A DNA stretch of 64,000 bases, taken from assembly GCA_963762145.1 (NCBI GenBank), contig CAVXJS010000009.1:320001-384000 (forward strand), in the 5' to 3' direction. A model generated the notes under the pieces. It did not search any database, was not told the origin of the DNA, and was given only the letters and a program-made list of their open reading frames with translations. Numbering within the stretch: the first letter of the stretch is position 1; every line of letters starts with the position of its first letter. This stretch comes from an uncultured Candidatus Rokubacteria bacterium. Lineage in GTDB: Bacteria > Methylomirabilota > Methylomirabilia > Rokubacteriales > CSP1-6. The position numbers were made by a program, and so were the translations under genes. Of the stretch, positions 6,626-60,592 are shown one piece after another.

Positions 6626-6710
6626 CAGCGCTTGTCAAGCGAGGCGCACGTTTCGTAACTCGGTAAGAATGCTAGCGTTGTAAGGTGCCGTGCCTACACG
6701 CTCTCCCGGG

Positions 6711-6726
6711 TGGCACTTTCGGTGCA
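6711..6726 (+). promoter_or_regulatory. sigma-54 (-24/-12) promoter
   Basis: TGGCACTTTCGGTGCA = GG-N10-GC. Upstream TGACA-N5-TGTCA palindrome at 6623-6637. Confidence 0.7.
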
Positions 6727-6738
6727 CATCTCCCGGGC

Positions 6739-7142: not shown

Positions 7143-7151
7143 GCCGGCTCG

Positions 7152-8615
7152 ATGCGCCTCGCCACCAAGATCTTCCTCGTCTCGGCCCTCGTCATCCTCG
7201 TCCTCTGCGGCACCGCGCTGTGGAGCCTGCTCACGGTCAAGCGCCTCGTCACCGCGAACCAGGAGATCGCCACGCGCGCGGTGCCCGCGCTGCGCCTGCA
7301 GGGCGCGCTGCGCGAGGCGGTGCACGGGCTGGTGCGCCTCGAGGCCCGGGCCCTCGTGCTCCAGGACCGGGACTACGCGGCGATGTGGAACGACCGCGCC
7401 ACGCGCGTGACCCGCGACATGGACAAGCTCGGCTCGTACCTGGAGCAGGCCGAGGAGCGGACCGCGCACGCGCGCGCCCGCGAGGCCTTCGCGACGTACC
7501 GTGGCCACGTCGAGGCAGGAGCGCCGGCTCGTCGCGCTCGGCCAGACCCGGGCCGCGCTGCAGATCGCGGAGGGCACCGCGCGCGAGGCGGCGGAGCGCG
7601 TGGAGGCCGCCCTCACCGACGCCACCGCCGCGACCGAGGCGGGGCTGGCCGCGGGCCAGGCGCGCGCCCGCGCGCTCGAGGCCCGCACCTGGCGCGCGGT
7701 CAGCGCCGCGCTGGCCGCGAGCCTGCTCCTGGCCCTGGTGGCCAGCGCGCTGCTCGCCTACCGGATGGCGCGGTCGCTCGGCCGCCTGTCCGCGGCCACC
7801 ACGTCGCTCGCGGCCGGCACCTGGACCGGGCCCCTCGCGGTCACGGGCCGCGACGAGATCAGCGAGCTCGGCCGCGCCTTCAACCAGATGGCGGATCGGC
7901 TCAGCGAGGTCGACCGCCTCAAGGAAGAGTTCTTCTCGCACATCACGCACGACCTGCGGAACCCGCTGTCCTCCATCCGTCTCGCCGCCGAGGGCCTCGA
8001 GGAGCGGGCCAAGCTCGCGGGCGACGCGAAGCAGGCGCGGTTCGCCTACCTCATCGAGATCAGCGCGGCCCGCATGATGGCCATGATCAACCAGATTCTC
8101 GATTTCTCGCGCCTGCGCGCGCGCGCGGTGCCGCTGGAGCGCAAGCCGACCGACATCCTGAAGGTGGCCGGGCAGGCGATGGACGAGCTCCGGCCGCTGT
8201 CCGAGGAGAAGCGGATCCGCGTCGACCTCGCGGCGGAGGGCCAGGACTTCACGATGCTGGGGGACGAGGGCAGCCTGGTGCGCGTGGTCGTGAACCTGCT
8301 CGGCAATGCCCTGCACTTCACCGCGGTCGGGGGGAACGGTGCACGCGCGACTGGTGGAGCGGGCGGATCGGCTCGATCTCGCCATCGAGGACACCGGGGT
8401 CGGGATTCCCGGCCGACGCGCTGCCCTGGATCTTCGAGCCCTATCGTCAGGCCCACGGGCCGCGCAAGGGAACGGGCCTCGGCCTCGCGGTGGTGAAGGG
8501 TCTGGTGGAGGCGCACGGCGGCACGGTGGAGCGTGCGGTCGGAGGTGGGGAAGGGAGCCTGCTTCACGGTCACGATCCCGAAGGCGCCGATGGACCGTGG
8601 CGGTCGGCGACATGA
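7152..8615 (+). CDS. HAMP-domain sensor histidine kinase, GlrK/QseE-like (frameshifted)
   Basis: TM-periplasmic-TM, HAMP (GRDEISELGRAFNQM), H-box [38 protein letters not shown] across frames. Confidence 0.85.
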   Translation: MRLATKIFLVSALVILVLCGTALWSLLTVKRLVTANQEIATRAVPALRLQGALREAVHGLVRLEARALVLQDRDYAAMWNDRATRVTRDMDKLGSYLEQAEERTAHARAREAFATYRGHVEAGAPARRARPDPGRAADRGGHRARGGGARGGRPHRRHRRDRGGAGRGPGARPRARGPHLARGQRRAGREPAPGPGGQRAARLPDGAVARPPVRGHHVARGRHLDRAPRGHGPRRDQRARPRLQPDGGSAQRGRPPQGRVLLAHHARPAEPAVLHPSRRRGPRGAGQARGRREAGAVRLPHRDQRGPHDGHDQPDSRFLAPARARGAAGAQADRHPEGGRAGDGRAPAAVRGEADPRRPRGGGPGLHDAGGRGQPGARGREPARQCPALHRGRGERCTRDWWSGRIGSISPSRTPGSGFPADALPWIFEPYRQAHGPRKGTGLGLAVVKGLVEAHGGTVERAVGGGEGSLLHGHDPEGADGPWRSAT

Positions 8616-13403: not shown

Positions 13404-13496
13404 GGGAAGATTGTTCCTGAATAATCTTCCCTGACATCGTCTGGCGCCTCGCAACTAGTTAATTTACAGACTCTCTGTTCTGGCATGCGCTGTGCC
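13404..13496 (+). promoter_or_regulatory. sigma-54 promoter with IHF-like site and palindromic enhancer
   Basis: Inverted repeat GGGAAGATTGTTC-CT-GAATAATCTTCCC (13404-13431). IHF-like AATTAACTAGTTG on minus strand (13452-13464, one mismatch to WATCAANNNNTTR). TGGCATGCGCTGTGCC -24/-12 at 13481-13496. Confidence 0.75.
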
Positions 13497-13553
13497 TCCC
13501 GTAGCGACCTTCCCATCCGCCAGACGCCTGCTCGTGATCAATGGAGGATCAGC

Positions 13554-37774: not shown

Positions 37775-38718
37775 CGCTTCAGGAGCCCGAGATCGCGCGC
37801 CAGCGCCTTGTTCAGATCGTCGTTCTGCTTGAGGAACTCGCCGTAGCCCTTGCGATCCAGGAAGCGCACGAAGGTGCCCTGCTTGGCCATGTCCTCGGCG
37901 AACTTCGCCTCCGCGGTCGCCTTCCGGCACGCGTCCTCGATCTTCGCGATCACGTCGGCGGGCGTGCCCTTGGGCACCATGATCCCGCGGGTCACCGCGT
38001 AGACCACGTTCACGCCCAGCTCCTTGAGGGTGGGCACGTTGGGCGCGTCGGGCAGGCGCTGCTCGGTGGCGACCGCGAGGAACTTGAGCTGCCCCGCGTC
38101 CACCTTGCCCTTCTGGGTGAGGTTGGAGTCGGTCAGGTCGATGTGGCTGCCCAGGATCGCGTTCATGCGCGGCGCGAGGCCCTCGTAGGAGACGTACTTG
38201 AACTTGATGTCGGCCGACTTCTCGATCAGGGCCGGGAAGAAGTGGCTGGTGGAGCCGAGCGTGGCCCCCACCGTGATCTGGCCGGGCCGCGCCTTGGCGT
38301 CGCCCAGGAGCTCCTGCCAGGAGGACCACTTCGTCTTCGGGCTCGCGGTGAGGACCGAGGGCGTGTTCGACACCGAGCAGATGGCCTCGAAGTCGGTGTA
38401 GGCCACGTCGGCCACGCCGGTGTAGTAGGTCGAGTGGATGTAGTCGTGCACCGCGTAGAGCGTGTAGCCGTCCGCCGGGGAGCCCTTGGCCTCCCGCGCC
38501 CCCGCGGTCCCGGAGGCGCCGGTCACGTTGGCGATGACCACGGTCTGCCCGAGGTGCTTCTGGAGCTGCTGGCCGAAGGGCCGGAAGATCGCGTCGGTGT
38601 CGCCCCCCGCGGCCCACGGCACGATCAGCTTCACGGGACGCTCGGGATAGGCGGCGAAGCCGGCCGACGCCGCGAGGGCGAAGGCGAGCAGACAGGCGAG
38701 AACCGTCAGTCGTCGCAT
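37771..38718 (-). CDS. tctC: tripartite tricarboxylate transporter substrate-binding protein TctC (Bug)
   Basis: Signal peptide, YPERPVKLIVPWAAGGDTD, NVTGASG, PADGYTL, PNVPTLKELG. Confidence 0.93.
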   Translation of the reverse strand: MRRLTVLACLLAFALAASAGFAAYPERPVKLIVPWAAGGDTDAIFRPFGQQLQKHLGQTVVIANVTGASGTAGAREAKGSPADGYTLYAVHDYIHSTYYTGVADVAYTDFEAICSVSNTPSVLTASPKTKWSSWQELLGDAKARPGQITVGATLGSTSHFFPALIEKSADIKFKYVSYEGLAPRMNAILGSHIDLTDSNLTQKGKVDAGQLKFLAVATEQRLPDAPNVPTLKELGVNVVYAVTRGIMVPKGTPADVIAKIEDACRKATAEAKFAEDMAKQGTFVRFLDRKGYGEFLKQNDDLNKALARDLGLLKR

Positions 38719-38861
38719 GGGAGTAGTCTCCTTTGGCCGGCGATCGCACGCCCGGCGGGCCGATGATAGCAGACCGCGGCGGGCGCGCTATAGGCACACA
38801 TTGTCTTTGACAGCGCCGCCTCTCCTCTCGCACGATGCCATGGGCTCGAGGAGGTGACGCC

Positions 38862-39401
38862 ATGGCCGCGAAGCGCACGCGCAAGCCGAAGCCGCGAACC
38901 CGCCGCCGCCCGGCGCGCCCCCGGATCCGCGCGCAGCGTATCGACGCACGCGCGAAGACCCTCGCCATCGGGGCCGAGCCGCCCATCGATCGCGACCCGG
39001 ATCATCTGGTCCCGGAATTCTGGACCCGTCTCCGCCGCGCGCTCGAGCAGCTCGCGGCGGCGGGCACCCCGTTCCGGTTCCACGAGGGATTCCGCACCGT
39101 CGAGCGCCAGCAGTGGCTCTACGGATCGGGCCGGCCCCGGGCCGCACTCGGGCGGCCGGGCGCCATCGTCACCAATGCCGACGGCGTCACCGTGCGGTCC
39201 AACCACCAGGGCAGCGGCACGGCGGGCTCGGGGCGCGCCGCGGATTGCTACCCGCTGCGCGACGGGCGCGTGATCATCCCGGCGGCCTCGGATCCCCTCT
39301 GGCGGGCCTACGCCGAGGCCGTCCGCGCGCAGGGCCTGACCGCCGGTCTCTACTGGCCGCGGCTCAAGGACGCGCCCCACTGCGAGCTTCCCACCGGATA
39401 A
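38862..39401 (+). CDS. M15 family Zn peptidase (L-Ala-D-Glu endopeptidase/endolysin-like)
   Basis: EGFRTVERQQWLYGSGR, IVTNA, SNH, AAD, DAPHCE. SD GAGGAGG. Arg/Lys-rich N-terminus, no signal peptide. Confidence 0.85.
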   Translation: MAAKRTRKPKPRTRRRPARPRIRAQRIDARAKTLAIGAEPPIDRDPDHLVPEFWTRLRRALEQLAAAGTPFRFHEGFRTVERQQWLYGSGRPRAALGRPGAIVTNADGVTVRSNHQGSGTAGSGRAADCYPLRDGRVIIPAASDPLWRAYAEAVRAQGLTAGLYWPRLKDAPHCELPTG

Positions 39402-39419
39402 CGACACGGAGGCCTCACC

Positions 39420-41756
39420 ATGGCAAAGACCCGGAAACGGCGCGCGACTCCTTCCCGGACCGCCCAGGCCGGCGCGGCGCACGCCGCGGCCGTCACGGAC
39501 GGCGCGCGGACCATCATCTTCGTCCACGGGATCGGCAACAAGCCGATCCAGTCCGTCCTCAAGTGCCAGTGGGACAACGCTCTCTTCGACTTCGACCTGG
39601 GCGAGCGGAGCCGGCTCGCGTACTGGGTCAACCGCGAGTTCTACCCAGACCCGACCACCGACACGTGCCAGAGCGGCGACACCGTGAAGCTCGAGGACGA
39701 GCCGACCGGGCGGGGCCTCAGCATCCGGAGCCATCTCGAGGCCGTCACCCTGAACGACGAGGTCGCCGCGGTGACCGACAACGAGCGGCAGCAGCGCCTC
39801 CTCCTGTCCATCGCGCGCAAGATGCAGACGAGCGCCGCCGTGCCGAAGGTTCGCGGGGTCGGGGCCCGCGGCGTCGGTGCCAAGGTCCTCCCGTTCGCCG
39901 GGCTGCGCGACTTCGTCACCCGGTCCTTGACGCGCGCGTTTCTCCGCGACGTCAACGACTACTTCTTCGTCCCGGCGCGCCGCGAGGCGATGCGCCGCAG
40001 CGTGCTCGAGCGGATCGAAGCGGGCGGCGGCCCCTTCGTGGTGATCGGGCACAGCCAGGGCTCGATGGTCGCGTACGACGTCCTGCAGAGCCTCCCGGCC
40101 GACGTGGACGTGCCCCTGTTCGTGACGATCGGCTCCCCGCTCGGCATCACCGAGGTGCAGGACCAGGTCAAGCGCCTGACCAACCAGCGGAGCCTCGCGG
40201 TGCCGGCCTGCGTCCGGGAATGGGTGAACGTCGCCGATCCGCTGGACCCGGTCGCGCTCGACAAGGACCTCAGCAACGACTTCGCGCCGTCGTCGCGCAT
40301 CCGCAACGTCCGGCACGGGAACCCGGACAGCCCGCGCAATCCCCACTCGGGCACCGGGTATCTCCGGACCCCGCCGGTCCAGGACGCGGTCCACGACGCG
40401 GTCTCGATCGGCCTGTTCCAGCCGGTCGCCGACTTCGTCGTCACGCGCGATCTGGTCCGGAACCTCGAGAACTGCCCCCCGGAGGAGCGGCACCCGGTCC
40501 TGATCGAGCTCTCCCAGGAGCCGGCCCAGGCCGCCGGGCCCGGCCAGGACCTGGAGGCGGTCCGGCAGACCGTGACCGCCCACGTCCGCCGCCTCACGCG
40601 GGCGTCCGACGAGGTCCTGAACCTGGAGGAGCTGCGGCACTTCGTCGCGGCAAAGCTGAGCCGCACCGAGGTCGAGACGCTCGCCTCCAACCCGGAGCTG
40701 CGCAGCCTCAAGGTCCGGCGCGTCTGGCGGAACGCGGTGAAGCGTGCGCTGCTCGACGTGTCGGTCCACACCGTGCAGGCGTTCCCGGCGCACGCGGGTT
40801 ATCGGGCGAGCGGCCGGGCGATCGACTGGGCCATCCTGGACACCGGCGTCAACGCGGGGCACCCGCACTTCAAGACCTTCGGAAACATCGGACCGCAGTA
40901 CGACTGCACGGCGCGGGGCCCGCTCAAGGTCGGGGTCGCGCCGGACGAGAACGGACACGGCACCCACGTGGCCGGCATCATCGCGGGAACCTACACCGTT
41001 CCCGGGCCGGTCCCTCGCGTGCTCTCCGGCATGGCGCCGGAGGCGCGGCTGCACATCTACAAGGTCCTGGATCGCCGGGGCAACGGCGACGACGCCTGGA
41101 TCATCAAGGCGCTCGATCACATCGCGGAGACGAACCGCAAGGCGGGACGGCCCGTGATCCAGGGCGTGAACCTGAGCCTGGGCGGTCCGTTCGACCAGAG
41201 CGTCTTCGGCTGCGGGCACTCCCCGCTGTGCCAGGAGCTGCGCCGCCTCTGGCAGCAGGGCGTCGTGGTCGTGCTCGCGGCGGGCAACGAAGGGTTCGCG
41301 GTGCTGCAGACCCTGGACGGCACGGTGGACGCGAACATGGATCTCTCGATCGGCGACCCCGCGAACCTCGAGGAGGCGATCGCGGTGGGCTCCATCCACA
41401 AGCAGAATCCCCACACCTACGGCATCTCGTACTTTTCATCCCGTGGCCCGACTGCCGACGGGCGACAGAAGCCCGACCTGGTCGCGCCCGGCGAGCGCAT
41501 TCTCTCGTGCCGCCACCGCTTCGCGGCCGGCGCGCGCACCGCCCAGGATCTCTACGTGGAGATGAGCGGCACGAGCATGGCCGCCCCGCACGTCTCCGGC
41601 GTCCTGGCCGCCTTCCTGTCCATGCGCCGGGAGTTCATCGGCGATCCGGACGCGGCCAAGAAGATCCTCCTGGGCAACTGCACCGATCTGGCCCGCGACC
41701 GCCCCCAGCAGGGCGCGGGGATGCCCAACCTGGTGCGCATGATGCTGAGCACCTAG
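39420..41756 (+). CDS. fusion of N-terminal alpha/beta hydrolase (lipase-like) and C-terminal S8 subtilase
   Basis: FVHGIG, GHSQG nucleophile elbow, FVTIGSPL, DPLDPV, NPH. Then the S8 triad ILDTG / DENGHGTHVAG / MSGTSMAAPHVSG and oxyanion AAGNEG. Confidence 0.9.
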   Translation: MAKTRKRRATPSRTAQAGAAHAAAVTDGARTIIFVHGIGNKPIQSVLKCQWDNALFDFDLGERSRLAYWVNREFYPDPTTDTCQSGDTVKLEDEPTGRGLSIRSHLEAVTLNDEVAAVTDNERQQRLLLSIARKMQTSAAVPKVRGVGARGVGAKVLPFAGLRDFVTRSLTRAFLRDVNDYFFVPARREAMRRSVLERIEAGGGPFVVIGHSQGSMVAYDVLQSLPADVDVPLFVTIGSPLGITEVQDQVKRLTNQRSLAVPACVREWVNVADPLDPVALDKDLSNDFAPSSRIRNVRHGNPDSPRNPHSGTGYLRTPPVQDAVHDAVSIGLFQPVADFVVTRDLVRNLENCPPEERHPVLIELSQEPAQAAGPGQDLEAVRQTVTAHVRRLTRASDEVLNLEELRHFVAAKLSRTEVETLASNPELRSLKVRRVWRNAVKRALLDVSVHTVQAFPAHAGYRASGRAIDWAILDTGVNAGHPHFKTFGNIGPQYDCTARGPLKVGVAPDENGHGTHVAGIIAGTYTVPGPVPRVLSGMAPEARLHIYKVLDRRGNGDDAWIIKALDHIAETNRKAGRPVIQGVNLSLGGPFDQSVFGCGHSPLCQELRRLWQQGVVVVLAAGNEGFAVLQTLDGTVDANMDLSIGDPANLEEAIAVGSIHKQNPHTYGISYFSSRGPTADGRQKPDLVAPGERILSCRHRFAAGARTAQDLYVEMSGTSMAAPHVSGVLAAFLSMRREFIGDPDAAKKILLGNCTDLARDRPQQGAGMPNLVRMMLST

Positions 41757-41763
41757 GCCAGCC

Positions 41764-43365
41764 ATGACGACCGCGAGCGGCAAGAACATCGTGATCTGCT
41801 CGGACGGGACCGGCAACACCGCGATCAAGGGCCGCGGCACGAACGTGTTCAAGCTCTTCGAGGCGGTGGACCTGAACGGGCACCGCACCGACCCGCGCCT
41901 GCCGCCCCAGGTCGCGATCTACGACGACGGGGTGGGGACCGAGGACTTCAAGCCGGTCCGCGTGGTCGCCGGGGCCACCGGATACGGGCTCAGCCGGAAC
42001 GTCCGGCAGCTCTACAAGGAGCTGGTGCGGATCTACGATCCCGGCGACCGCATCTTCCTCTTCGGCTTCAGCCGCGGGGCGTTCACGGTGCGCACGCTGG
42101 CGGGCCTGATCGGCTTCTGCGGGATCGTGGACGTGCGGCGGCTCCCCACCGTCGACGCATTGACCGCCGCGGTGAAGCGCGCATACCGGGCCTACCGGGC
42201 GCGCTACCGCACCCCCCTCGGCAAGCTGCTCCGCGGCGAGGTCGATCCGCAGGCGATCGAGCGCTTCCGGGCCGAGTGCTGCCACGAGCTCCCGGCCCCG
42301 GTGCACTTCCTCGGCGTGTGGGACACGGTGGACGCGGTCGGCCTGCCGTTCCATCTCGGAGAGGTCATCAACCTGACGATCTACCGGTTCAAGTTCCCCG
42401 ACCAGCACCTCGGGCCCATCGTGCAGACGGCCTGTCACGCGCTCTCGGTGGATGACGAGCGGCACGCCTTCCACCCGCTCCTGTGGCATCACCGCGACGC
42501 GGGTGACGACCGGCGCATCGACCAGACCTGGTTCGCGGGCGCCCATTCCAACGTGGGCGGCGGCTATCCCAAGCAGGGCGTGTCGCTCGTCGCGCTGGAG
42601 TGGATGCTCCAGAAAGCCGAGACCGCCGGGCTCCGGCTGGTCCCGGGCGATCGCGGCTACTACCGCGACCACGCGAACGTGGACGACAAGGTCTACGACC
42701 CGCGGGCGGGGATCGGCATGTTCTACCGGTGGAAGCCGCGCGACGTGGCCGCGCTGTGCGACGCCAATCGGGTGGCGCCGACCGTGCATCTCAGCGTGCT
42801 GGAGCGCATCGCGCACGGCACGGAGGACTACGCTCCGGGCAACCTGGCCCCGAACGCCCGGGTCGTCATCACGCCGTCGGGGGAGGCCACCGCCGACGAG
42901 GCGGCCCGGGCCCGCGCCCGGGGCGTCGAGGCCGTCCTCCACGAGGCGCACCGAGCCGACCCGCGCCCGCTCCTCGCGCGGGTGCGCGGCCCGATCGTGA
43001 TCGGACTCCTCTCGTACTACGTCTACATCGCCGCGTGCGTGGCCGTGGTCGCCGCAGCGTCGGCCCCCGCGGATATTGGCACCACCGGATGGGCCTGGCG
43101 GTGGCTCACCGGCGCGGCCACCCTGATCGGGAACGTCGTGACGCTCCAGGTGGGCGAGCTCTGGAAGACGGTCAAGACGATGGCGACGTCGCCCTGGCTC
43201 TTCGGCCCGCTCGTCGCCGGGTTCTTGCTCTCCTACGCGCTCGCCTTCGTGGCCGACCGCCGCATGAGCCGTGTCTTCTCGGGCTTCTGGTACGAGCAGC
43301 AGCCCCGGCTACGCGCCGCCTTGAAAGCCGCGCGCAAGGAGTCCGGAGGGCCGGCCGGAGGATGA
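41764..43365 (+). CDS. DUF2235 (Tle1-like) phospholipase domain protein with C-terminal TM helices
   Basis: NIVICSDGTGN, TNVFKL, YDDGVGT, FGFSRGA, GVWDTV, HALSVDDER, WFAGAHSNVGGGY; hydrophobic segments near the C-terminus. Confidence 0.9.
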   Translation: MTTASGKNIVICSDGTGNTAIKGRGTNVFKLFEAVDLNGHRTDPRLPPQVAIYDDGVGTEDFKPVRVVAGATGYGLSRNVRQLYKELVRIYDPGDRIFLFGFSRGAFTVRTLAGLIGFCGIVDVRRLPTVDALTAAVKRAYRAYRARYRTPLGKLLRGEVDPQAIERFRAECCHELPAPVHFLGVWDTVDAVGLPFHLGEVINLTIYRFKFPDQHLGPIVQTACHALSVDDERHAFHPLLWHHRDAGDDRRIDQTWFAGAHSNVGGGYPKQGVSLVALEWMLQKAETAGLRLVPGDRGYYRDHANVDDKVYDPRAGIGMFYRWKPRDVAALCDANRVAPTVHLSVLERIAHGTEDYAPGNLAPNARVVITPSGEATADEAARARARGVEAVLHEAHRADPRPLLARVRGPIVIGLLSYYVYIAACVAVVAAASAPADIGTTGWAWRWLTGAATLIGNVVTLQVGELWKTVKTMATSPWLFGPLVAGFLLSYALAFVADRRMSRVFSGFWYEQQPRLRAALKAARKESGGPAGG

Positions 43366-43408
43366 GCGTCCGTTGCGCCCGGCCGCGGGGCCGGGTAGCA
43401 TCGGCCGC

Positions 43409-44593
43409 ATGACGACGGCGCGCACCGCGGAGGTGGTGATCATCGGGGGCGGCGTGACCGGCGCCAGCACCGCGTTTCACCTGACCCGGCGCGGGATCAC
43501 CGACGTGATCGTGGTGGACAAGGGCGCGATCGCCTCGGGCGGCACCGGGAAGAGCTCGGCGTGCGTACGCCAGCACTACTCGACGGCCGAGACCTGCCGG
43601 ATGATCCGGTACTCGCTCGACTTCTTCCAGCGCTTCGCTGAGCACACCGACGGCGGCTCGTGCGGGTTCCGCCACACCGGCTACCTCCTCGGGGTGGACG
43701 CGAAGATGCGCACGCCGATGGAGGCCTCGGTCGCGCTCCAGCGCTCGGTCGGCATCGACACGCGGCTCGTGTCGCCCACCGACATGCGCGAGATCGAGCC
43801 GCGCCTTCGCGCGGACGACCTGGTGGCCGGCTGCTACGAGCCGGCGTCGGGCTACTGCAACCCCGTCGAGACCGCGCAGGGCTTCGCGCGGGCCGCGCGC
43901 GCGGCGGGCGCGCGCATCCTGGAGGACACCGCGGTGATCGGCCTGCTCGTGGACGGCGACCGCGTGCGCGGCGTCCGCACCGTCGCGGGGGACATCCACT
44001 CTCCCGTGGTCGTCAACGCGGCGGGCCTGTGGAGCGCCCGGGTAGGCGCGATGGCGGGCGTCGAGCTGCCGATCCACGTATGCCGTCACCGGATCAGCAT
44101 CGTGGCCTGGCCGGAGGCCGATCGGCGCCCGCACCCGATGGTGTACGACTTCGTGACGAACATCTACACCCGGCCCGAGATGGGCGAGCACATCCTGGTC
44201 GGCGGGCTCGACGCCGAGGAATCGCAGGCCACCGCCGACCCCGACGCCTACCGGGAAGGCGTGAGCCTCGACGAGTCCACCGAGGCGCTCGCGCGCGTGA
44301 GCCATCGCTTCCCCGCCCTGGCCGACGGACACATCGCCCGCGGCTACGCGGGCTGCTTCGACGTCTCTCCCGACTGGCACCCCATCCTCGACCGGGTGGG
44401 CCCGGAGGGCTATCACGTGGCCGCGGGCTTCTCCGGCCACGGCTTCAAGCTCTCGCCGGCGGTGGGCCACATGATGGCCACCCTCATCGTCGAGGGGCCG
44501 GGCGGGCATCCGGATCTGCCCACCTTCCGCCTGGCCCGGTTCGCGGAGGGCAAGCCGATCCGAGGAACCTATGGCGACTGGCTGATGTGCTAG
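43409..44593 (+). CDS. FAD-dependent oxidoreductase (DadA/sarcosine oxidase beta-like)
   Basis: IIGGGVTG, GGTGKSSA, VNAAGLWS, SPDWHPIL, GFSGHGFK. Promoter TTGCGC-N17-TAGCAT 7 nt before ATG. Confidence 0.9.
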   Translation: MTTARTAEVVIIGGGVTGASTAFHLTRRGITDVIVVDKGAIASGGTGKSSACVRQHYSTAETCRMIRYSLDFFQRFAEHTDGGSCGFRHTGYLLGVDAKMRTPMEASVALQRSVGIDTRLVSPTDMREIEPRLRADDLVAGCYEPASGYCNPVETAQGFARAARAAGARILEDTAVIGLLVDGDRVRGVRTVAGDIHSPVVVNAAGLWSARVGAMAGVELPIHVCRHRISIVAWPEADRRPHPMVYDFVTNIYTRPEMGEHILVGGLDAEESQATADPDAYREGVSLDESTEALARVSHRFPALADGHIARGYAGCFDVSPDWHPILDRVGPEGYHVAAGFSGHGFKLSPAVGHMMATLIVEGPGGHPDLPTFRLARFAEGKPIRGTYGDWLMC

Positions 44594-45792
44594 CGCCGTC
44601 CCGTCCCTGGCTCGTCGTCGGCGCGGTCTGGATCACGCTCGCGATCGCCTCCGGCCTCTACTTCTCGTTCCCCATCTTCTTCGTCGCGCTCCTGGACGAG
44701 TTCGGCTGGTCGCGCGGCGCGACCGCGGCCGCGTTCTCCATCTCGTCGGTCGTGCAGGGCGTGCTGGCCCCGGTGGTCGGAATCCTCGTCGACCGCCTCG
44801 GGCCGCGGCGGGTGATGCTGGGAGGCGCAGGCGTGCTGGGGCTCGGGTGCGCGCTGTCGAGCCGCGTGGACTCGCTGTGGTCGCTCTACCTGATCGTCGG
44901 CGGGCTGACCGCGGCCGGGGCGTGCGCGGTGAGCTGGGTGCCCGCGGGCGCGCTGATCGCGCGCTGGTTCGCCGAGGGCCGGGGCACCGCGATGGGTGTG
45001 GCGTTCTCGGGCATGGGCGCGGGCGTGCTGACGGTGGGGCCGCTCGCCCAGTGGCTGATCGCGGGATCCGGCTGGCGCACCGCCTACCTCGCCCTGGGGC
45101 TCGGCACCCTCGCCGTGCTCCTGCCCCTCATCTGGCTGGGCGTGCACGACGGGCCGGGCGCGGCCGCGCCCGCGCGCGGCGCGAGCGCGGTCCCCCTCTC
45201 CTGGGGCGCGGAGATCGGCGACGCGCTGCGGACGCGCGCGTTCTGGGCCCTCTTCTTCGCGTACCTGTGCACCCCGCTGGCCGTCTTCTCGGTCGTCACG
45301 CACCAGGTGGCCTTCGCGGTCGACCACGGCTTCCCGCGGCTGTTCGTCGCCTCGATCTTCGGGCTCACCGGGCTGCTCTCGGTGGTGGGCCGCATCGGGT
45401 TCGGCGTCGCGGCGGACCGGATCGGGCGCGCTACCTCGGCCACGATCTCCTACGGCTGCACCGCGGTGGGGACGCTCTGCCTGCTCGGGCTCGAGGTGTG
45501 GCCGCACGTGGCCGCGCTCTACGCCTACGCGATCTTCTTCGGCCTGGGCTTCGGAGCCCGCGGGCCGATCATCACCGCGATGGCCTCCCAGCTCTTTCCG
45601 GGACGCTTCGGGGCGATCTACGGGCTGCTCAGCGTCGGCAACGGCATCGGCGGGGGCGTCGCGCCGTGGTTCGGCGGCTACGTCCACGACCTCACGGGGA
45701 GCTACCGGATCGCCTTCCTCACCGCGGTCGCCTTCTGCGCGGTCGGCGCGACGTGCTTCTGGCTCGCGCGCCCTCCGCGCGATGCGCTATGA
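44587..45792 (+). CDS. MFS transporter (OFA/MCT-like)
   Basis: About 12 TM helices, EFGWSR, GILVDRLGPRRV, ADRIGR, GYVHDLTGSY. Confidence 0.88.
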   Translation: MLAPSRPWLVVGAVWITLAIASGLYFSFPIFFVALLDEFGWSRGATAAAFSISSVVQGVLAPVVGILVDRLGPRRVMLGGAGVLGLGCALSSRVDSLWSLYLIVGGLTAAGACAVSWVPAGALIARWFAEGRGTAMGVAFSGMGAGVLTVGPLAQWLIAGSGWRTAYLALGLGTLAVLLPLIWLGVHDGPGAAAPARGASAVPLSWGAEIGDALRTRAFWALFFAYLCTPLAVFSVVTHQVAFAVDHGFPRLFVASIFGLTGLLSVVGRIGFGVAADRIGRATSATISYGCTAVGTLCLLGLEVWPHVAALYAYAIFFGLGFGARGPIITAMASQLFPGRFGAIYGLLSVGNGIGGGVAPWFGGYVHDLTGSYRIAFLTAVAFCAVGATCFWLARPPRDAL

Positions 45793-45800
45793 TCCGCCCG

Positions 45801-46595
45801 ATGCGCCTGGCGGGTCGCGTGGCGGCCATCACCGGAGGAGCGCTCGGGATCGGGCGCGCGACCGCGCGCACCTTCGCCGAGGAGGGCGCCATCGTCGCGC
45901 TCGGCGACGTGCAGGTCGAGGCCGCGGAGGCGGTGGCGCAGGAGATCCGCGGGCGCGGCGGCCGGGCGATCGCGATCGGCGTCGACGTGGGCGACGCGGC
46001 GGCGGTGCAGGCCTTCGTCGACCGCGTGGTCGCCGAGTTCGGGCGCCTCGACGTCATGTTCGCCAACGCGGGGATCGCGCACTCCGCGCCGTTCCTGGAG
46101 CACCCCGAGGCGCAGTGGCACCGGGTCCTGCGCGTCAACCTGACCGGCGTGTTCCTCTGCTGCCAGGCCGCCGCGCGCCAGATGGTGAAGCAGGGCGGCG
46201 GCCGGATCATCACCACCGCGTCGATCAACGCCTTCCGGGGCGTGGAGAACCTCGTCGGCTACAACGCGGCCAAGGCCGGCGTCATCGAGCTCACCCGCAC
46301 CATGGCGGTCGAGCTCGCGCACCATCGCATCGCGGTGAATGCGATCGCGCCTGCCCAGATCGACACCCGGCTGAGCCGGAGCCTCCCCGCGGACGCCCGG
46401 CGCCGGCGGGTGGAGCGCATCCCGATGGGCCGCTTCGGCGAGCCGGAGGAGGTGGCCCGGGTCGCGCTCTTCCTCGCCGGGGACGACGCCAGCTACGTCA
46501 CCGGCCACACGCTCGCGGTGGACGGCGGTTACCTGGCCGGGGGCCTCTGGTCGGGCGCGCCGGATGTCGGCGCCCCCGGCGGCACGCCGGGCTAG
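45801..46595 (+). CDS. SDR family NAD(P)-dependent oxidoreductase
   Basis: TGGALGIG, NAGI, YNAAK, VNAIAP, VDGG. TATGAT 7 nt before ATG 45801 (alternative start 45789). Confidence 0.92.
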   Translation: MRLAGRVAAITGGALGIGRATARTFAEEGAIVALGDVQVEAAEAVAQEIRGRGGRAIAIGVDVGDAAAVQAFVDRVVAEFGRLDVMFANAGIAHSAPFLEHPEAQWHRVLRVNLTGVFLCCQAAARQMVKQGGGRIITTASINAFRGVENLVGYNAAKAGVIELTRTMAVELAHHRIAVNAIAPAQIDTRLSRSLPADARRRRVERIPMGRFGEPEEVARVALFLAGDDASYVTGHTLAVDGGYLAGGLWSGAPDVGAPGGTPG

Positions 46596-46635
46596 CGTCC
46601 GGGCGGCCGTCCCGCGGCCGCTGCCACCGAGCCCG

Positions 46636-47848
46636 ATGGAACAGGCCCTGAGCGACGTCACGGTGATCGACCTCGGCCAGGTCATCGCGATGCCGTTCTG
46701 CACGATGCTCCTCGCCGACCTCGGCGCGCGGGTGATCAAGGTCGAGTCGCGGGAGCGCGGGCGCGAGCGCGTGTCGCTCGGGGTCAAGACGTCGCCGCGA
46801 CGGCGTCGAGGAGCGGGTGCCCGCCGCGCAGTACCGCGATCGCAACAAGCTCGGCGATCACGCTCGATCTGAAGACGCCGAGCCGGCGTCGAGCTCTTCC
46901 GCGAGCTGGTGCGACGCGCCGACGTGGTCACCGAGAACTTCAGCGTCGGCACGATGGCGCGCCTCGGCCTCGGCTACGAGGCGCTGCGCCGTCGTCAACC
47001 CCCGGCTCGTCTATGCCTCGATCACCGCGTTCGGCCAGCACCGGACCCTACGCGCCCCAGCGCGGCTACGACATGCTCGCGCAGGCGATCAGCGGCTACA
47101 TGAGCATCACCGGCGATCCCGACGGGCCGCCCACCCGATCCGGCCAGTCCATCTCCGACTACTACGCGGGCATGCTGTGCGCCTTCAGCATCGTCTCCGC
47201 GCTGCACTACCGGCAGCGCACCGGCCGAGGGCAGCACATCGACCTGGCCCTGCTCGACAGCCTCCTGGTGGCGCTGGACAACCTCGGCGAGCGCTACACG
47301 GTGGGCGGCGAGATCCTCACCCGCGCCGGCAACGTCTCGTTCGCCGGGTCGGCCACCGGGATCTACGCGACCACCGACGGCCACGTCGCCATCGCGGCCG
47401 CCGCGAGCAACGCGGTGTGGGCCCGCTTCTGCGCGGCCATCGGCCGCGGACGAGCTCGACGCGCGCCCCCGCGTTCGCCACCGCGGCGGCCCGGCGCGAC
47501 CGGCGCGACGAGATCGCCGCCATCATCCAGCGGTGGACCGGCGAACGGAGCAAGGCCGAGGCCGTGCGCGCCCTGACCATGGCCGGCGTGCCCGCCGCGC
47601 CGGTCAACAACGTGGCCGAGATGGTCGCCGATCCCCAGGTGCAGGCCCGCGAGATGTTCGTCGAGCTCGACCATCCGGTCTACGGGCCCTTGAAGACGAC
47701 CGGGACGCCGCTGAAGCTCTCGGAGACGCCCGGCCGGGTCCGCTGGCTGGCTCCCATGCCGGGGCAGGACAACCATGAGGTCTTCGTCGATCTCCTGGGC
47801 CACACGCCCGATGATCTCGAGCGCTGGCGCGCCGAGGGCGTGATCTGA
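46636..47848 (+). CDS. CaiB/BaiF family CoA transferase (frameshifted)
   Basis: VIDLGQVIAMPFCTMLLADLGARVIKVE, ADVVTENF, GYDMLAQAISG, TGRGQHID, PLKLSETPG. Confidence 0.9.
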
Positions 47849-47970
47849 CGGCCACCCGCGCGCCCCCGCTCTCTTAGCATTGTTCCGGTCGGCGCCTTGA
47901 CCCCACCTGGGGGCCATGGCCTCCGAGTCTTGGCCGGTTATGTCACGGGCACGGGACCCAAGCCGGGGCG

Positions 47971-47997
47971 CGCCCGCCGCCGGCGGGCGTTTCTGTT
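47971..47997 (+). terminator. intrinsic terminator-like hairpin
   Basis: CGCCCGCC-GCC-GGCGGGCG followed by TTTCTGTT. Confidence 0.55.
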
Positions 47998-48002
47998 GGC
48001 TA

Positions 48003-48129
48003 TTCTCTCCCGCTATAGGACGAAGGTCCCATGGTGCCGCCGGAGCACATGGATACACACTCCCCTGGAAGGCGCGACCTTCGAACCGGCGGACCGCGAT
48101 GTCAGCTATTCGCGGAGATCGGGAGGGAA
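48003..48129. ncRNA. candidate structured RNA of unknown class
   Basis: Nested helices: 48003-48012/48120-48129, 48021-48028/48076-48083 (perfect 8 bp), 48029-48037/48045-48052, 48094-48099/48110-48115. No family recognised. Confidence 0.35.
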
Positions 48130-48177
48130 CGTGCACAGCCCAATTGGGTTTCGGATGGGCTTGATGACGCAAGGCCA

Positions 48178-49272
48178 ATGAGCCAGCCGTGGCCGCCTGA
48201 CGACGAGCGCGAAAAGCGAGCGTCGTCGCGCCTTCTCGATGTACTGATCCGTGCCGGCCTGATCGGTGTATTGGCGGTGCTGTGCTACATCATCTTTGCA
48301 CCGTTCCTGGCACTGATGGCCTGGGCGATCATCCTGGCCGTCACGCTCTATCCGTTGCACCGATCGCTCGCCCAGAGGATTGGTGGCAAACAGGGCCTCG
48401 CCGCGACCCTGGTGGTTCTTGCCGGCCTCCTCCTGATCGTCACGCCGTCTGCACTACTGATGAATTCGTTTGGAAGCTCAATCTATGACCTTGCCAGGGC
48501 CGTGCAACACAACACCCTCGACATACCTGCACCGCGCGAGGCCATCAAAGAATGGCCGATCGCGGGCAACAAGATCTACGACACGTGGTCACGGGCCCAT
48601 ACGGACCTACCTGGCCTCGTCGAGCGCCTGCAGCCGAAAATCGGCGAGCTGGCCAGAAAAGCGCTCTTGGCCGTCGCAAGCATTGGTATCGGCATGCTGC
48701 AGTTTCTGGCGTCATTCATCGTCGCCGGCGTATTGATGGCGTACGGTGAGGCGGGCTCGCGCGGGAGTCGAGCGATCTTCGAGCGCATCATCGACAGAGA
48801 ACGAGGCGAACCGTTTGCCAGACTGTGCACGGCAACGATCCGCGCCGTGGCTCAGGGAGTCATCGGCATCGCTTTCGTTCAGGCGATCCTCGTCGGCCTT
48901 GCGCTCCTCCTGGCCGGCGTACCGTGGGCCGGTGTCCTGGCGATGATCACTCTCGTGTTGAGCATCGCCCAGGTGCCGGCGCTCATCGTCATCCTGCCAG
49001 CAGTCGCGTTCATCTGGTCGAGCGGCAACTACGGCCACGGTGCAGCCATCGCCTATACGGTCATCTTGCTGCTCTCCGGGATGGCCGACAATGTCTTGAA
49101 GCCGTTGATGTTGGGTCGCGGAGTCGATGCACCGATGCCGGTCATCCTGCTCGGGGCATTGGGTGGCATGGCGACCGGCGGAATCCTGGGAATGTTCGTG
49201 GGGGCCACGCTCCTGGCCCTCGGCTATCAGATCTTCATGAACTGGGTCGCAACCAATCCAGAAGCGACCTGA
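48178..49272 (+). CDS. AI-2E family transporter
   Basis: PFLALMAWAIILAVTLYPL, DNVLKPLMLGRGVDAPMPVILLGALGG, GILGMFVG. Visibly lower GC than flanks. Confidence 0.9.
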   Translation: MSQPWPPDDEREKRASSRLLDVLIRAGLIGVLAVLCYIIFAPFLALMAWAIILAVTLYPLHRSLAQRIGGKQGLAATLVVLAGLLLIVTPSALLMNSFGSSIYDLARAVQHNTLDIPAPREAIKEWPIAGNKIYDTWSRAHTDLPGLVERLQPKIGELARKALLAVASIGIGMLQFLASFIVAGVLMAYGEAGSRGSRAIFERIIDRERGEPFARLCTATIRAVAQGVIGIAFVQAILVGLALLLAGVPWAGVLAMITLVLSIAQVPALIVILPAVAFIWSSGNYGHGAAIAYTVILLLSGMADNVLKPLMLGRGVDAPMPVILLGALGGMATGGILGMFVGATLLALGYQIFMNWVATNPEAT

Positions 49273-49367
49273 AGTCCCTCAGATCGGCCGCGGCAATGGC
49301 TCGACACGAGCGTGTCACGGATTAGCGAGTTGGTGGTCGGCCGGCACGGGTGGCCCGGCGCGCCCGG

Positions 49368-50546
49368 TCACCCCATCGGATCCACGTCGGGGAAGCCCAG
49401 CAGGATCTGTCCGAGACGCTCGTAGGCCGAATCGCTCACCATGAGGTGCTGCGCGCCCGCGTTGATGTCGCGCAGGCAGCGCTGCAGCACGCCGGTGCGG
49501 TAGAGCGCGCCGCCGCCGGCCGCGCGGAAGAGCCCGGTCACGATCTCAACGGCGGTCTCGGTCGCATACGTGGCCACGCTGCGCAACTCGCTCTGCTGGC
49601 GGCGCGTCAGGATGCCGCCCGCGCCGACGGTGGCCCAGGCCGCCTCGAACAGCTCGATCGCGCCGGACCGGACCGCACGTAGCCGGATCTCGCCCTCGCC
49701 GAGCCGGGCCTGGAAGGCGGCACGCGCGGCCAGCGGCGAGGCGGTGACGAGGCCGCGCGACTTCGATTGCGCGAGCTCGGCGGCGGCGCCGAGGGCGCGG
49801 CGCATGATGCCCAGCGCGAAGGCCACGTGCTCGTAGGCCACGAAGGCCGGCATGCCCAGGCGGAACAGCGCGCCGCCCCGGCGCGGCTTCGCGGTGGCGG
49901 GATTCCAGACGAACGCGGCGGGCACGAAGCAATCAGTCACGGAGAAGTCGCTGCTGCCGGTGCCCTCGAGGCCGGCGACCTGCCAGTTGTCGTGGATCTG
50001 CGCGGCCGCCGCCGGGATGACCACGATGTGGCGCTCGCCCGGGTCCTGCGCGTCGCGCCGGACGATCGCGCCGGCGGTGAGCCACTCCGCGTGCCGCACG
50101 CCGCTGGCGAAGGGCCAGCGCCCGGTCAGCCGGTAGCCGCCGTCCACCGGCGTCGCGGTGCCGGTCGGCAGGATGGCGACCGCGGCGGGCGGGACGCGGC
50201 CGCCCGCCAGGATCGTCCCGATCGCCTCGTCGGGCAGGAAGCCGGCGGGCAGGCCCACCGCGGTGGTCGCGACCATGAGACACCAGCCGGCCGAGGCGTC
50301 GATGTAAGTGAGCGCCTCGATCACCTCGAGCTGGGTCACCGGATCGGCCTCGGCGCCGCCGAGTGACTCGGGCACCTTCAAGGCCAGGAGCCCCGAGTGG
50401 GCGAGCGCGCGCACCGTCGCGGGTGGCAACGTGCGCAGGCGCTCTCCTTCCTCCGCGCCCGCCGCGACCACGTCGCGCATCGCGTCCACCGCGGCGAGGA
50501 GACGAGCGCGCTTGGCGTCTCGATCGGCCGGCCGCGCTGCGCTCAT
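49368..50546 (-). CDS. acyl-CoA dehydrogenase-family flavin-dependent monooxygenase (HsaA-like)
   Basis: GYRLTGRWPFASG, DNWQVAGLEGTGS, AAGGGALY, LQRCLRDINAGAQH. Confidence 0.88.
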   Translation of the reverse strand: MSAARPADRDAKRARLLAAVDAMRDVVAAGAEEGERLRTLPPATVRALAHSGLLALKVPESLGGAEADPVTQLEVIEALTYIDASAGWCLMVATTAVGLPAGFLPDEAIGTILAGGRVPPAAVAILPTGTATPVDGGYRLTGRWPFASGVRHAEWLTAGAIVRRDAQDPGERHIVVIPAAAAQIHDNWQVAGLEGTGSSDFSVTDCFVPAAFVWNPATAKPRRGGALFRLGMPAFVAYEHVAFALGIMRRALGAAAELAQSKSRGLVTASPLAARAAFQARLGEGEIRLRAVRSGAIELFEAAWATVGAGGILTRRQQSELRSVATYATETAVEIVTGLFRAAGGGALYRTGVLQRCLRDINAGAQHLMVSDSAYERLGQILLGFPDVDPMG

Positions 50547-58715: not shown

Positions 58716-59144
58716 TCAGCGCGCGCCGCGCGATCGCCCCACGGGAAGCGCCTCGAGGGCGGCCTTGATCAGGAACGCGGCCGCCGCCGAGCCCGCCGCC
58801 GCGAGGATCCGCTGGGTGACCGTAGGCTCCGTCGCCACACGCTCGGGCCGATCGATCATGCGACCGACGGCCTCGCGCAGGCGGCCGCCGCGGGCGAGCA
58901 GGGTGTTCCGACGGCGGGCCCGCCAGACCCCGAGCGCAATCGCGCCCGCCGTCACGGCCCCCATGGCCAGCACGGTCGTGGTGACGCCCAGGGCGTGGCG
59001 CCGAACCTGGAGCCCGACGTCGGTGAGCTCGTGGCCCCGCTGGCTCAATTCCGCGACCCGCGCGGTGAGCTCCTGCCGCTGGCGCATGATCCCGGCCTCG
59101 ATCTGCCGGGGATCGCGCGGCGGCTCCTCCCGGATGTCGGTCAC
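58716..59144 (-). CDS. DUF3618-like small membrane protein
   Basis: RDPRQIEAGIMRQRQELTARVAEL followed by hydrophobic helices. GTGA overlap with the upstream gene. Confidence 0.65.
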   Translation of the reverse strand: MTDIREEPPRDPRQIEAGIMRQRQELTARVAELSQRGHELTDVGLQVRRHALGVTTTVLAMGAVTAGAIALGVWRARRRNTLLARGGRLREAVGRMIDRPERVATEPTVTQRILAAAGSAAAAFLIKAALEALPVGRSRGAR

Positions 59145-60592
59145 GCCACCTGGTCCTTGAGCCATTTCCAATCCGCCTTCAGTGACTTCCGCGTGAGCGC
59201 GAGGGCCGAGCGAGGACGCTGCGCCCAGCCGATGAAGCCGGCGGTCGCCCCCCCGACGAGCACGACTCCGCCCACGAGCAGCGCGGCCAGCCAGCCCGGC
59301 ATGAACGGGACGAGTGCCAGGACCACCGCCACCAGCAGGAGGGTGACGCCGATGATGGCCGCCACCACGGCCAGCACAAGCCCGACCGCGGTCCGGCGCG
59401 CGGCCTTCAGGTCGCTCGCCAGCTCCGCGCTCGCCAGCTCCACCTCGCTCTGGGCGAGCTGCAGGAGCCGGCCACCGACCTCGCCGACCAGCTTCCAGCT
59501 ACTCGGGCCGCCCTCCGTCCGCTTCGTCCCGTTCGTGCGCGCCCGGTCCTCGTATCGCTCCATCGTTTCCTCCTGGTGAATCAACCCGGCGAGCAGCTGT
59601 GGCTTGCCCTCGAGGGCACGGCTCACCTGCAGCGCCTTGCGATAGATGATCTGCCATTCGTCGTACGCGATGGGGAGGGCCTCGATCTCGCGCACGATCT
59701 CCCGGAGGCGCGCCGCGGGCACCGATTCCGGCGGCCCGGTCGTGGTTCCCCGCGCCGCCTGCCACAGGCGCGCGATCCGCCGCTCGATCGCCTGCGCCCG
59801 CGGGTCGGATGTCTGCCAGACGTCGAGATCGCTCACCCCTTCCACGACGAGACCCTGAGCCGGCGCCAGCACATCCGGCCGGCCCCGGATCAGGAGCCCA
59901 CTCGGGTAGAGCGCCAGGGTCAGATCCCGGCCCGCGAAATACGCGAGGTCGGCCGGAACACGGCTCTGGAAGGCGTCGTGATCCATGGCGCTGAGCACCC
60001 GCAGTGGGGCGGTCAGCCACCAGGGAGGCCGGGCACGTCCCACCACCCGGCCATGCTCTTCCAGGATGGTCGGTATCCGCTGCGCGACCTGCGCATACGA
60101 GGCCGCGTCGGTCAGCAGCGGCACCTGCACGTCCTTCCGCCGCCTCGCCGCGGAAATCAATCGCAGGACGGGCACGGTCACCAGGGTGATCGAGAGCGCG
60201 GCGGAGAGGCCGACGGTGATCGGGAACCCGCGGAGGAGCCGGATCGGCCATGACCGCTTCGGCCGATCCTCGGGCTGCCGGGCCGCCATGGCCGCTCCGA
60301 CCGCCAGGGGCACCGCCAGAGCCAGGCCGATCCAGAACCAGCGGACGACCGAGGACGGAACCCACTCTGGAATCGGCACGAACGCCAGCACGTACGCCGC
60401 GACCTTCGGCGCCGCCACCCCCAGGAGCAGCAGCGGCCAGGCGCCGGCCGCCGCCAGCAACGCGGACAGGAAGACCTTCTCGGTCCCACTCGCGTACCCG
60501 AAGATCGCGACGACGGCCCAGTCGAACAGCGCGCTCAGGATCTTCCCGAACGAGCGACTGACGAAGGCGACGAGGGCCTGGATGATCGCCAT
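59141..60592 (-). CDS. membrane protein with C-terminal phage-holin-like (YqjE-type) domain
   Basis: N-terminal multi-TM domain. C-terminal LLQLAQSEVELASAEL...PGWLAALLVGG...TRKSLKADWKWLK. Internal SD+ATG at 59563. Confidence 0.75.
   Translation of the reverse strand: MAIIQALVAFVSRSFGKILSALFDWAVVAIFGYASGTEKVFLSALLAAAGAWPLLLLGVAAPKVAAYVLAFVPIPEWVPSSVVRWFWIGLALAVPLAVGAAMAARQPEDRPKRSWPIRLLRGFPITVGLSAALSITLVTVPVLRLISAARRRKDVQVPLLTDAASYAQVAQRIPTILEEHGRVVGRARPPWWLTAPLRVLSAMDHDAFQSRVPADLAYFAGRDLTLALYPSGLLIRGRPDVLAPAQGLVVEGVSDLDVWQTSDPRAQAIERRIARLWQAARGTTTGPPESVPAARLREIVREIEALPIAYDEWQIIYRKALQVSRALEGKPQLLAGLIHQEETMERYEDRARTNGTKRTEGGPSSWKLVGEVGGRLLQLAQSEVELASAELASDLKAARRTAVGLVLAVVAAIIGVTLLLVAVVLALVPFMPGWLAALLVGGVVLVGGATAGFIGWAQRPRSALALTRKSLKADWKWLKDQVA

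Follow-up and report, generated by a model that had tools for sequence, protein, structure and literature searches.

Here we analyze three adjacent hydrolase genes, designated g1, g2 and g3, within a 64,000-nucleotide stretch of DNA from an uncultured Candidatus Rokubacteria bacterium (contig CAVXJS010000009.1, positions 320,001 to 384,000; hereafter the window). They encode an M15-type peptidase homologue, a fusion of an alpha/beta-hydrolase with an S8 subtilase, and a DUF2235 hydrolase with a membrane anchor. As a tentative reading, possible and favoured here without being held probable, we propose that the trio is a lineage-specific, protease-centred self-attack module that serves regulated autolysis or an abortive-infection type of defence. 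We favour this reading because export signals are lacking, g3 carries an anchor and the three activities are coherent; because an Amidase_2 domain has independently been fused to relatives of g2, a family that also has variable effector-type partners; and because the principle of protease-activated killing effectors is known, as described in a preprint (bioRxiv 10.1101/2021.06.07.447441). An earlier note on the same DNA, made from its letters alone, had proposed a self-contained three-gene system that could attack the cell envelope, a proposal that our conservation analysis narrows to a single lineage.

Organization of the three genes

The three open reading frames (ORFs) lie on the forward strand (Table 1), and the gaps of 18 nt between g1 and g2 and 7 nt between g2 and g3 agree with the tight packing that the earlier note had reported. 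A GGAGG motif precedes g2, and there is no room for a promoter ahead of g3; the trio is probably one transcription unit. The start of g1 in public records is the ATG at 38862, again with GGAGG upstream, and the 188-aa form that would start at 38835 was absent from the protein collection searched. The promoter TTGACA-N18-CACGAT claimed earlier is indeed present, at a position compatible with a transcript start before this GGAGG and ATG, but its −10 box is poor (Table 1) and a consensus scan of positions 38400-45000 called 0 promoters and 0 terminators.

Third-position GC values of 0.88-0.95 are typical in a window with ~72% GC, and we therefore regard the three ORFs as real genes. The base composition of the trio is native-like, with nothing pointing to recent transfer, and a search for repeats of the att-site type around the trio returned only GC-rich chance matches. 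Neither Rfam elements nor tRNAs (ARAGORN) were found in the parts of the window examined.

Table 1. Positions of features in the window and, for the last three rows, in loci of g2 relatives.
Feature	Position	Strand	Remarks
Putative promoter TTGACA-N18-CACGAT (weak)	38807..38836	+	sequence present; −10 box matches 3/6 positions
g1, 179-aa M15-type (VanY-like) L-Ala-D-Glu peptidase homologue	38862..39401	+	public name 'M15 family metallopeptidase'
g2, 778-aa fusion of alpha/beta-hydrolase, propeptide-like segment and S8 subtilase, predicted cytoplasmic	39420..41756	+	
g2 residues 28-345, alpha/beta-hydrolase domain	39501..40454	+	HG motif, GHSQG elbow, conserved D276, H309
g2 residues ~355-445, subtilase-propeptide-like segment	40482..40754	+	beta-alpha-beta-beta-alpha-beta order in model
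g2 residues 465-778, S8 catalytic domain (D474, H513, N623, S719)	40812..41753	+	PF00082 E 1.2e-47
g3, 533-aa DUF2235 (Tle1-like) hydrolase with C-terminal two-helix anchor	41764..43365	+	PF09994 E 1e-70
g3 residues 409-498, two hydrophobic helices (409-440, 478-498), then basic tail	42988..43257	+	Kyte-Doolittle scan
MFS transporter gene	about 44602-45792	+	downstream of DAO gene, gap ~8 nt
SDR gene	about 45801-46595	+	downstream of MFS gene, gap ~8 nt
CoA-transferase family III gene	46564-47848	+	broken over three frames, downstream of SDR gene
SIR2-like protein, locus L031	10334-11407		
SIR2-like protein, locus L040	6997-8070		
SIR2-like protein, locus L066	10251-11318		

Domains and predicted location of the proteins

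The S8 domain that the earlier note had read in g2 is confirmed by a PF00082 match of 163.1 bits (cut-off 21.8) over residues 471-766 and by a profile match to the PDB entry 3afg (E 4e-42), and the triad D474, H513 and S719 as well as the oxyanion residue N623 are invariant in 103 sequences. The N-terminal domain contains the GxSxG nucleophile elbow, and in the same sequences H211, G214 and H309 are invariant and S212 and D276 are kept in at least 90%. It matches no curated alpha/beta-hydrolase family above threshold: Thioesterase (19.6 bits, cut-off 26.4), Abhydrolase_6 (18.9, cut-off 26.3) and Palm_thioest (16.3, cut-off 26.8) all fall short, and PGAP1, LCAT, DUF900 and Lipase_3, returned by Atlas with a score of 0.85, are weak leads only. 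The label 'lipase' given to this domain earlier is therefore a putative one.

For g2, we used an AlphaFold model from a 103-sequence run, with a mean pLDDT of 84.7 and mostly >90 across residues 160-330, and set aside a 20-sequence run (mean pLDDT 62.8) as too poor. The best Foldseek matches of the 103-sequence model are unautoprocessed pro-subtilisins, which align over 433-478 columns compared to ~330 for mature enzymes; this whole-model search is dominated by the S8 domain and is thus uninformative on the N-terminal domain. Between the two domains lies a segment with the fold order of a subtilase propeptide (Table 1) and without a Pfam I9 match, and the model suggests that residues ~355-445 may act as an inhibitory propeptide. 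The protein starts with a basic, low-complexity tail.

The description of g3 as a membrane-anchored DUF2235 protein holds. Its residues 7-283 match PF09994 with 238.8 bits, the motifs GFSRG, WDTV and AHSNVGGG are present, and S103, D187 and H261 are invariant in 32 sequences; a comparison with solved structures gave no sequence match at E 0.01. The C-terminal anchor region is kept in relatives, with conserved positions reaching R524, and the topology predicted from the sequence puts the catalytic domain on the cytoplasmic side. Relatives of similar length number more than 4000.

The M15 identity of g1 could be upheld in part. The protein is homologous to solved L-Ala-D-Glu endolysin domains (2vo9, E 1.1e-9; 6akv, E 4.6e-7) and ~35% identical to endolysins in 38 phage records, but it reaches only 19.5 bits against Pfam M15_4 (PF13539), for which the cut-off is 25. 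The motifs SNH, AAD and DAPHCE are present and the His/Asp/His zinc ligands H115, D128 and H173 are retained; across 94 sequences, H115 and D128 never vary, and at least 90% of the sequences keep D170, H173 and E175. Relative to 2vo9, six residues are inserted between the first two zinc ligands, and this insertion is a family trait, as is the basic, disordered-looking N-terminal tail. The relatives of g1 fall into 469 representative clusters and carry the M15 domain in varied fusions. One relative (P0315) combines a g1-type M15 domain with an eCIS_core domain, and another, the 1430-aa protein P0318, contains about eleven tandem copies of the C-terminal third of the g1 domain.

In a Kyte-Doolittle scan, no 19-residue hydrophobic stretch was found anywhere in g2 or in g1, which hence has no signal-like N-terminus, and the only two such stretches of g3 are at its C-terminus. 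As g1 and g2 are without any hydrophobic segment, the hydrophobicity scan predicts that all three catalytic domains lie on the cytoplasmic side. Thus, two further claims of the earlier note, intact catalytic motifs and the lack of signal peptides, are supported, the first also by the conservation of the respective residues in relatives.

Linkage of the three genes in close relatives

Linkage among close relatives was derived from contigs of the same size and from consecutive accessions among the cluster members of the three proteins, covering the best 120 matches and up to 15 members per cluster. Above ~88% identity, a contig size of 5912 bp is common to relatives of g1, g2 and g3, relatives of g2 and g3 share contig sizes of 570967, 8159, 12485 and 4802 bp, and relatives of g1 and g3 share contig sizes of 192139 and 100840 bp. 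At 83-88% identity, g2 and g3 relatives share contig sizes of 22814, 31812, 5139, 5260 and 3224 bp, the one of 5139 bp also with g1, and sizes of 4959 and 4163 bp recur between trio genes. Consecutive records exist for M15 and S8 proteins (HET9855995.1 and HET9855996.1) and for DUF2235 and S8 proteins (HSL50710.1 and HSL50711.1), the latter pair in a metagenome-assembled genome (MAG) labelled Candidatus Deferrimicrobiaceae, which denotes a phylum other than Methylomirabilota. The linkage therefore extends down to about 83-88% identity and includes MAG records labelled as two different phyla. Close relatives of the trio proteins are named from Methylomirabilota/Rokuibacteriota MAGs.

At lower identity, no such matches appeared among the matches listed, neither between g2 relatives of 80% identity or less (contigs of 10767, 7617 and 17477 bp) and contigs of g1 or g3, nor between g1 or g3 relatives of 81% identity or less and contigs of g2 relatives. 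Within the tree of g2 proteins, those with the M15+DUF2235 arrangement make up one small clade. Judged by these contigs and records, the trio is not widely conserved and travels together only in one narrow lineage, among relatives of at least about 83% identity.

Distribution and neighbours of the g2 family

A pattern scan of one genome per species gave at least 617 confirmed relatives of g2. We kept 77 loci, flanked by up to 8 kb on either side, 68 with the full-length fusion (14 phyla) and nine with an S8-only protein. The family is unusually conserved, with 58-66% identity between phyla, and its tree departs from taxonomy, for instance by placing Nitrospirota with Lysobacteraceae and Verrucomicrobiota with Synechococcus. 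Some relatives adjoin integrases (L058, L060) or smpB (L036, L047). Going by its sequences and their tree, the family is horizontally scattered and mobile.

The g2 protein matches the 'subtilase' model of PADLOC (PDLC03014) with 245.5 bits (E 3e-73); a relative from Microvirga spans the entire profile, and profile positions 1-391 (285 bits) are covered in L011. The accession of this model is close to those of the models 'caspase' and 'nacht', and we take it to be part of the gasdermin set.

Several kinds of domain occur beside g2 relatives. In L029 and L061, the next gene downstream encodes a SIR2_2+pYEATS protein; SIR2_2 is a rare domain in genomes. In three phyla (L031, L040, L066; Table 1), a 355-357-aa protein with SIR2 motifs follows at a distance of 0-4 nt. 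The three proteins are 41-58% identical between loci, carry a Cys-rich insert and match SIR2 weakly (PDB profile E 0.004, Pfam 7.7e-4). A SIR2-TPR protein adjoins the relative in L053. Trypsin-like proteins are encoded upstream in L024 (together with Endonuclease_NS), L026, L028 and L048, and single loci have a caspase (L018), PLD (L035), patatin (L025), DUF900 (L054), astacin (L038) or SLT (L001) neighbour. FAD amine-oxidase or DAO genes follow in L004 and L045. Moreover, 4/120 of the best 120 relatives, all in a single clade separate from that of the trio, are fused to an N-terminal Amidase_2, which is a different peptidoglycan hydrolase domain from M15.

Further observations concern individual branches and collections. 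Immediately upstream of the g2 relative in L004 (Coleofasciculus), positions 4852-7687 contain a strong match to IetA (294 bits) along with another S8 match, a distant one, so that two different S8-based genes stand side by side. The S8-only relatives (L069-L077; L078, Rhizobium johnstonii pRL11, 4527-7541) have 450-560 aa and in most loci are followed by a conserved protein of 440-540 aa that has the motifs HGW and GHSFGG. From these motifs the partner looks like an alpha/beta-hydrolase, and the pair like a separate subtilase-plus-hydrolase cassette; that the partner is the split-off hydrolase domain of g2 was unsupported in hhalign (probability 6.9%). An unannotated protein of ~250 aa adjoins g2 relatives in two phyla (L015 10149-10919, L022 7135-7884), downstream in one locus and upstream in the other, with 31-34% identity and no Pfam or PADLOC match.

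A plasmid collection contained no full-length relative of g2 or g3. It held S8-only relatives, as a separate two-gene cassette; its best DUF2235 match was a 941-aa protein in the context of a type VI secretion system (T6SS), and the hit H1 adjoins PAAR and DUF2169 genes. In a phage collection, all matches were to endolysin or S8 domains, and g3 had no match. In the literature we found no description of the g2-type fusion family or of the trio, and the studies listed on DUF2235 deal with T6SS or comparative genomics. The structure 8JMW is that of the extracellular peptidase Vpr and was discarded as irrelevant.

Genomic surroundings of the trio

Upstream of the trio, tctCBA is divergently oriented, as the earlier note had stated. 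On the other side, a DAO-type oxidoreductase gene starts at 43409, 43 nt past g3 on the same strand with no terminator-like site in between, and is followed by genes for an MFS transporter, an SDR protein and a CoA-transferase (Table 1). A promoter of its own, which the earlier note had assigned to the gene after g3, was not called by the consensus scan. Compact co-directional packing is thus a trait of the whole region, and tight spacing is not special to the trio. The pieces of the CoA-transferase gene (46564-46872, 47013-47576 and 46817-47848) lie in three frames and each match a different part of PF02515, which points to a pseudogene or to assembly frameshifts.

The surroundings therefore consist of transport and metabolic genes rather than a defence island. 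Among the window ORFs scanned there were no phage, T6SS or extracellular contractile injection system (eCIS) genes, no VgrG/PAAR or immunity genes and no PADLOC systems, consistent with the earlier remark that no phage, T6SS or immunity gene is adjacent. A PADLOC search had been suggested in which no hit together with conserved synteny would speak for novelty. No system was called among these ORFs, g2 itself matches the 'subtilase' model, and in the 77 loci and the matches listed synteny does not continue beyond the clade.

Elsewhere in the window, positions 13485-19253 encode a hybrid histidine kinase of 1922 aa, in which about ten HAMP domains in tandem are combined with a GAF domain and two receiver domains. 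The GC content drops in 47500-49500 (0.62-0.66 compared to ~0.72), a segment with the gene for an AI-2E family transporter (48031-49272). On the reverse strand, 59141-60592 encode a 483-aa protein with a C-terminus of the Holin-X family (PF07332, 72 bits); this protein is ~16 kb from the trio.

Interpretation of the locus

In the self-attack reading, g2 would have acquired two partners, g3 and g1, in the trio lineage. The propeptide-like arrangement suggests that the g2 fusion could be a zymogen whose protease is held inactive until a trigger arrives. Activation of the subtilase would then release or activate the hydrolases, so that g3, perhaps together with the hydrolase domain of g2, would damage the inner membrane from inside; g1, having no export signal, would reach the peptidoglycan only after this breach, with lysis as the consequence. 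We infer each of these mechanistic steps and consider the idea of a self-attack or defence module plausible.

A number of results speak against it. In tblastn searches, neither g1 nor g3 had a relative in any of the 77 g2-family loci, and family hidden Markov models (119 and 121 sequences) found g3 relatives in 0/77 and M15 in 1/77, a weak and distant match ~7 kb from the g2 relative (L022). All-versus-all clustering of the flanking ORFs gave no neighbour family that recurs in more than 10/77 loci. In most of the loci the neighbours are unrelated or housekeeping genes (aldehyde dehydrogenase, PGI, DnaB, SmpB). The rate of any PADLOC match among neighbours of g2 relatives (26/130; E ≤1e-5, two long ORFs left out for size) is not above that among window ORFs (7/38), and the argument therefore turns on the kind of domain found. 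None of the 38 other window ORFs has a specific PADLOC match, so the window does not qualify as a defence island; neither an immunity gene nor an inhibitor gene is evident, and the trio is co-directional with the metabolic string DAO-MFS-SDR-CoA-transferase with no terminator between them. Both g1 and g3 have many relatives of 55-75% identity whose contigs, among the matches listed, are unmatched to those of g2. Even the linkage in close relatives may be simple shared ancestry, given identities of at least 83%, and the cross-phylum label of HSL50710.1/HSL50711.1 could be a binning error. The gene-neighbourhood search proposed in the earlier note thus had two outcomes: the trio stays together down to about 83% identity, but the 77 family loci are without a g3 or an adjacent g1 relative, and as a general, self-contained three-gene system the proposal fails outside one narrow clade. 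Its envelope- or self-attack interpretation gains from the varied effector-type enzymes beside the g2 family and from the Amidase_2 fusion, and loses from the lineage restriction of the trio.

A serious rival, which we judge somewhat unlikely, is chance adjacency of three independent accessory genes that are neighbours only through lineage history, with g2 a stand-alone single-gene system, g3 an independent membrane lipase and g1 an independent peptidase. The absence of adjacent g1 and of any g3 relatives from 77/77 loci, together with the lack of a neighbour family in more than 10 of them, is what such a history predicts, and so is the confinement of the M15+DUF2235 arrangement to one small clade of the g2 tree. 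The >4000 relatives of the g3 family share its architecture, with 57-65% identity in other phyla, and have no need of g2, the 469 clusters of g1 relatives with their varied fusions are likewise independent of it, and short gaps are not distinctive in a region that is compact and co-directional throughout. Against chance stand the gaps of 7 and 18 nt with no promoter space ahead of g3, the fact that all three genes encode hydrolases with envelope-type targets and no signal-like N-termini, the independent Amidase_2-g2 fusion clade, and the g2-g3 pair in a MAG labelled as another phylum.

The genes might instead serve housekeeping turnover of the envelope or nutrient scavenging and share their expression with the adjacent genes for transport and catabolism, g1 as a peptidase of muropeptides in the cytoplasm, g2 as a protease or esterase inside the cell and g3 as a membrane lipid-remodelling lipase. 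The metabolic context, with tctCBA on one side and the DAO-MFS-SDR-CoA-transferase string without a terminator on the other, fits this view, as do the FAD amine-oxidase or DAO genes after g2 relatives in two other loci (L004, L045), the native-like base composition and third-position GC, and the very high sequence conservation that g2 and g3 show between phyla, a degree seldom seen in defence genes, which evolve fast. We nevertheless regard it as unlikely, since the g2 family is patchy, has a tree at odds with phylogeny, sits beside integrases in some genomes, matches a PADLOC model and recurs beside SIR2 and trypsin-like genes, and since g1 is closest to phage endolysin domains. Quite improbable, in our judgement, is that the proteins are antagonistic effectors exported through a secretion or injection system whose genes lie elsewhere in the genome. 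DUF2235 is the domain of the Tle1 T6SS effectors, the plasmid hit H1 adjoins PAAR and DUF2169 genes, a g1-type M15 domain is fused to eCIS_core in P0315, and the basic low-complexity tails of g1, its relatives and g2 could conceivably be loading signals. However, T6SS, eCIS, VgrG/PAAR and immunity genes are missing among the window ORFs scanned, the two-helix anchor of g3 is atypical of a secreted effector, and g2 relatives are solitary in most genomes.

Beyond the self-attack module that we tentatively favour for the trio itself, a wider and rather unlikely generalization is that the g2-type fusion is the conserved core of undescribed mobile, protease-gated suicide or defence modules with interchangeable effectors. 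These effectors would be SIR2 NADases, a trypsin-nuclease, PLD, patatin or DUF2235 phospholipases and peptidoglycan hydrolases, and the trio would be a variant with two effectors, dissolving membrane and wall from inside and in effect acting as a holin-free lysis cassette. If the self-attack reading is right, a function would be gained for a family present in at least 617 species-representative genomes, the principle that a protease activates a killer, as in gasdermins and caspase-like systems, would extend to enzymatic effectors against membrane and wall, and the trio would illustrate a way for a cell to lyse itself with no holin. If instead adjacency is accidental, three unrelated accessory hydrolases have become neighbours by chance in a single lineage from soil; the g2 family, with its recurrent SIR2 partners, would even so be a worthwhile lead.

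Comparison with known systems

The earlier note had not recognized the combination as a named system, and this agrees with our comparisons as well as with the literature found. With phage M15-type endolysins such as Ply500 and LysB4, g1 shares a homologous catalytic domain and conserved zinc ligands. In contrast to them it has no wall-binding domain, holin or prophage, carries the insertion and the basic tail, and has relatives fused to unrelated domains. A phage lysis cassette was accordingly rejected for the trio, given that phage genes and an adjacent holin are lacking among the window ORFs scanned and that g1 has no signal-like N-terminus. The Tle1 effectors of T6SS have the same PF09994 domain as g3 with the conserved Ser-Asp-His set, whereas g3 has a C-terminal two-helix anchor and belongs to a family spread widely over lineages without a demonstrated T6SS context. 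As no T6SS or immunity gene was present among the window ORFs scanned and g3 is membrane-anchored, the trio is not a T6SS Tle1 locus.

For g2, the best structural matches across the propeptide-like segment and the catalytic domain are pro-Tk-SP and pro-subtilisin E. These are secreted enzymes, whereas g2 has no signal peptide and places an alpha/beta-hydrolase of ~345 residues ahead of the propeptide-like segment. An S8 protease in anti-phage defence is known from IetAS, and g2 matches this protease, IetS, weakly (PADLOC 55 bits, NCBIfam 43.9). The trio differs in having no adjacent IetA ATPase, and the IetA of L004 belongs to a separate system; with 43.9 bits against a cut-off of 900 for NF042956, an assignment to IetAS was rejected.

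No match to bGSDM models was found in g1, g3 or 130 neighbours of g2 relatives, and the trio is thus not a gasdermin system. The candidate effectors here are enzymes (DUF2235, M15), in contrast to bacterial gasdermin-protease operons, and g2 has an extra hydrolase domain. The likeness lies in the principle of a dedicated protease gene next to one for an effector that damages membranes. As described in the preprint cited above (bioRxiv 10.1101/2021.06.07.447441), protease-activated cell-killing effectors exist, and subtilase is among the associated protease domains. By this analogy, the g1-g2-g3 trio resembles protease-plus-effector conflict modules.

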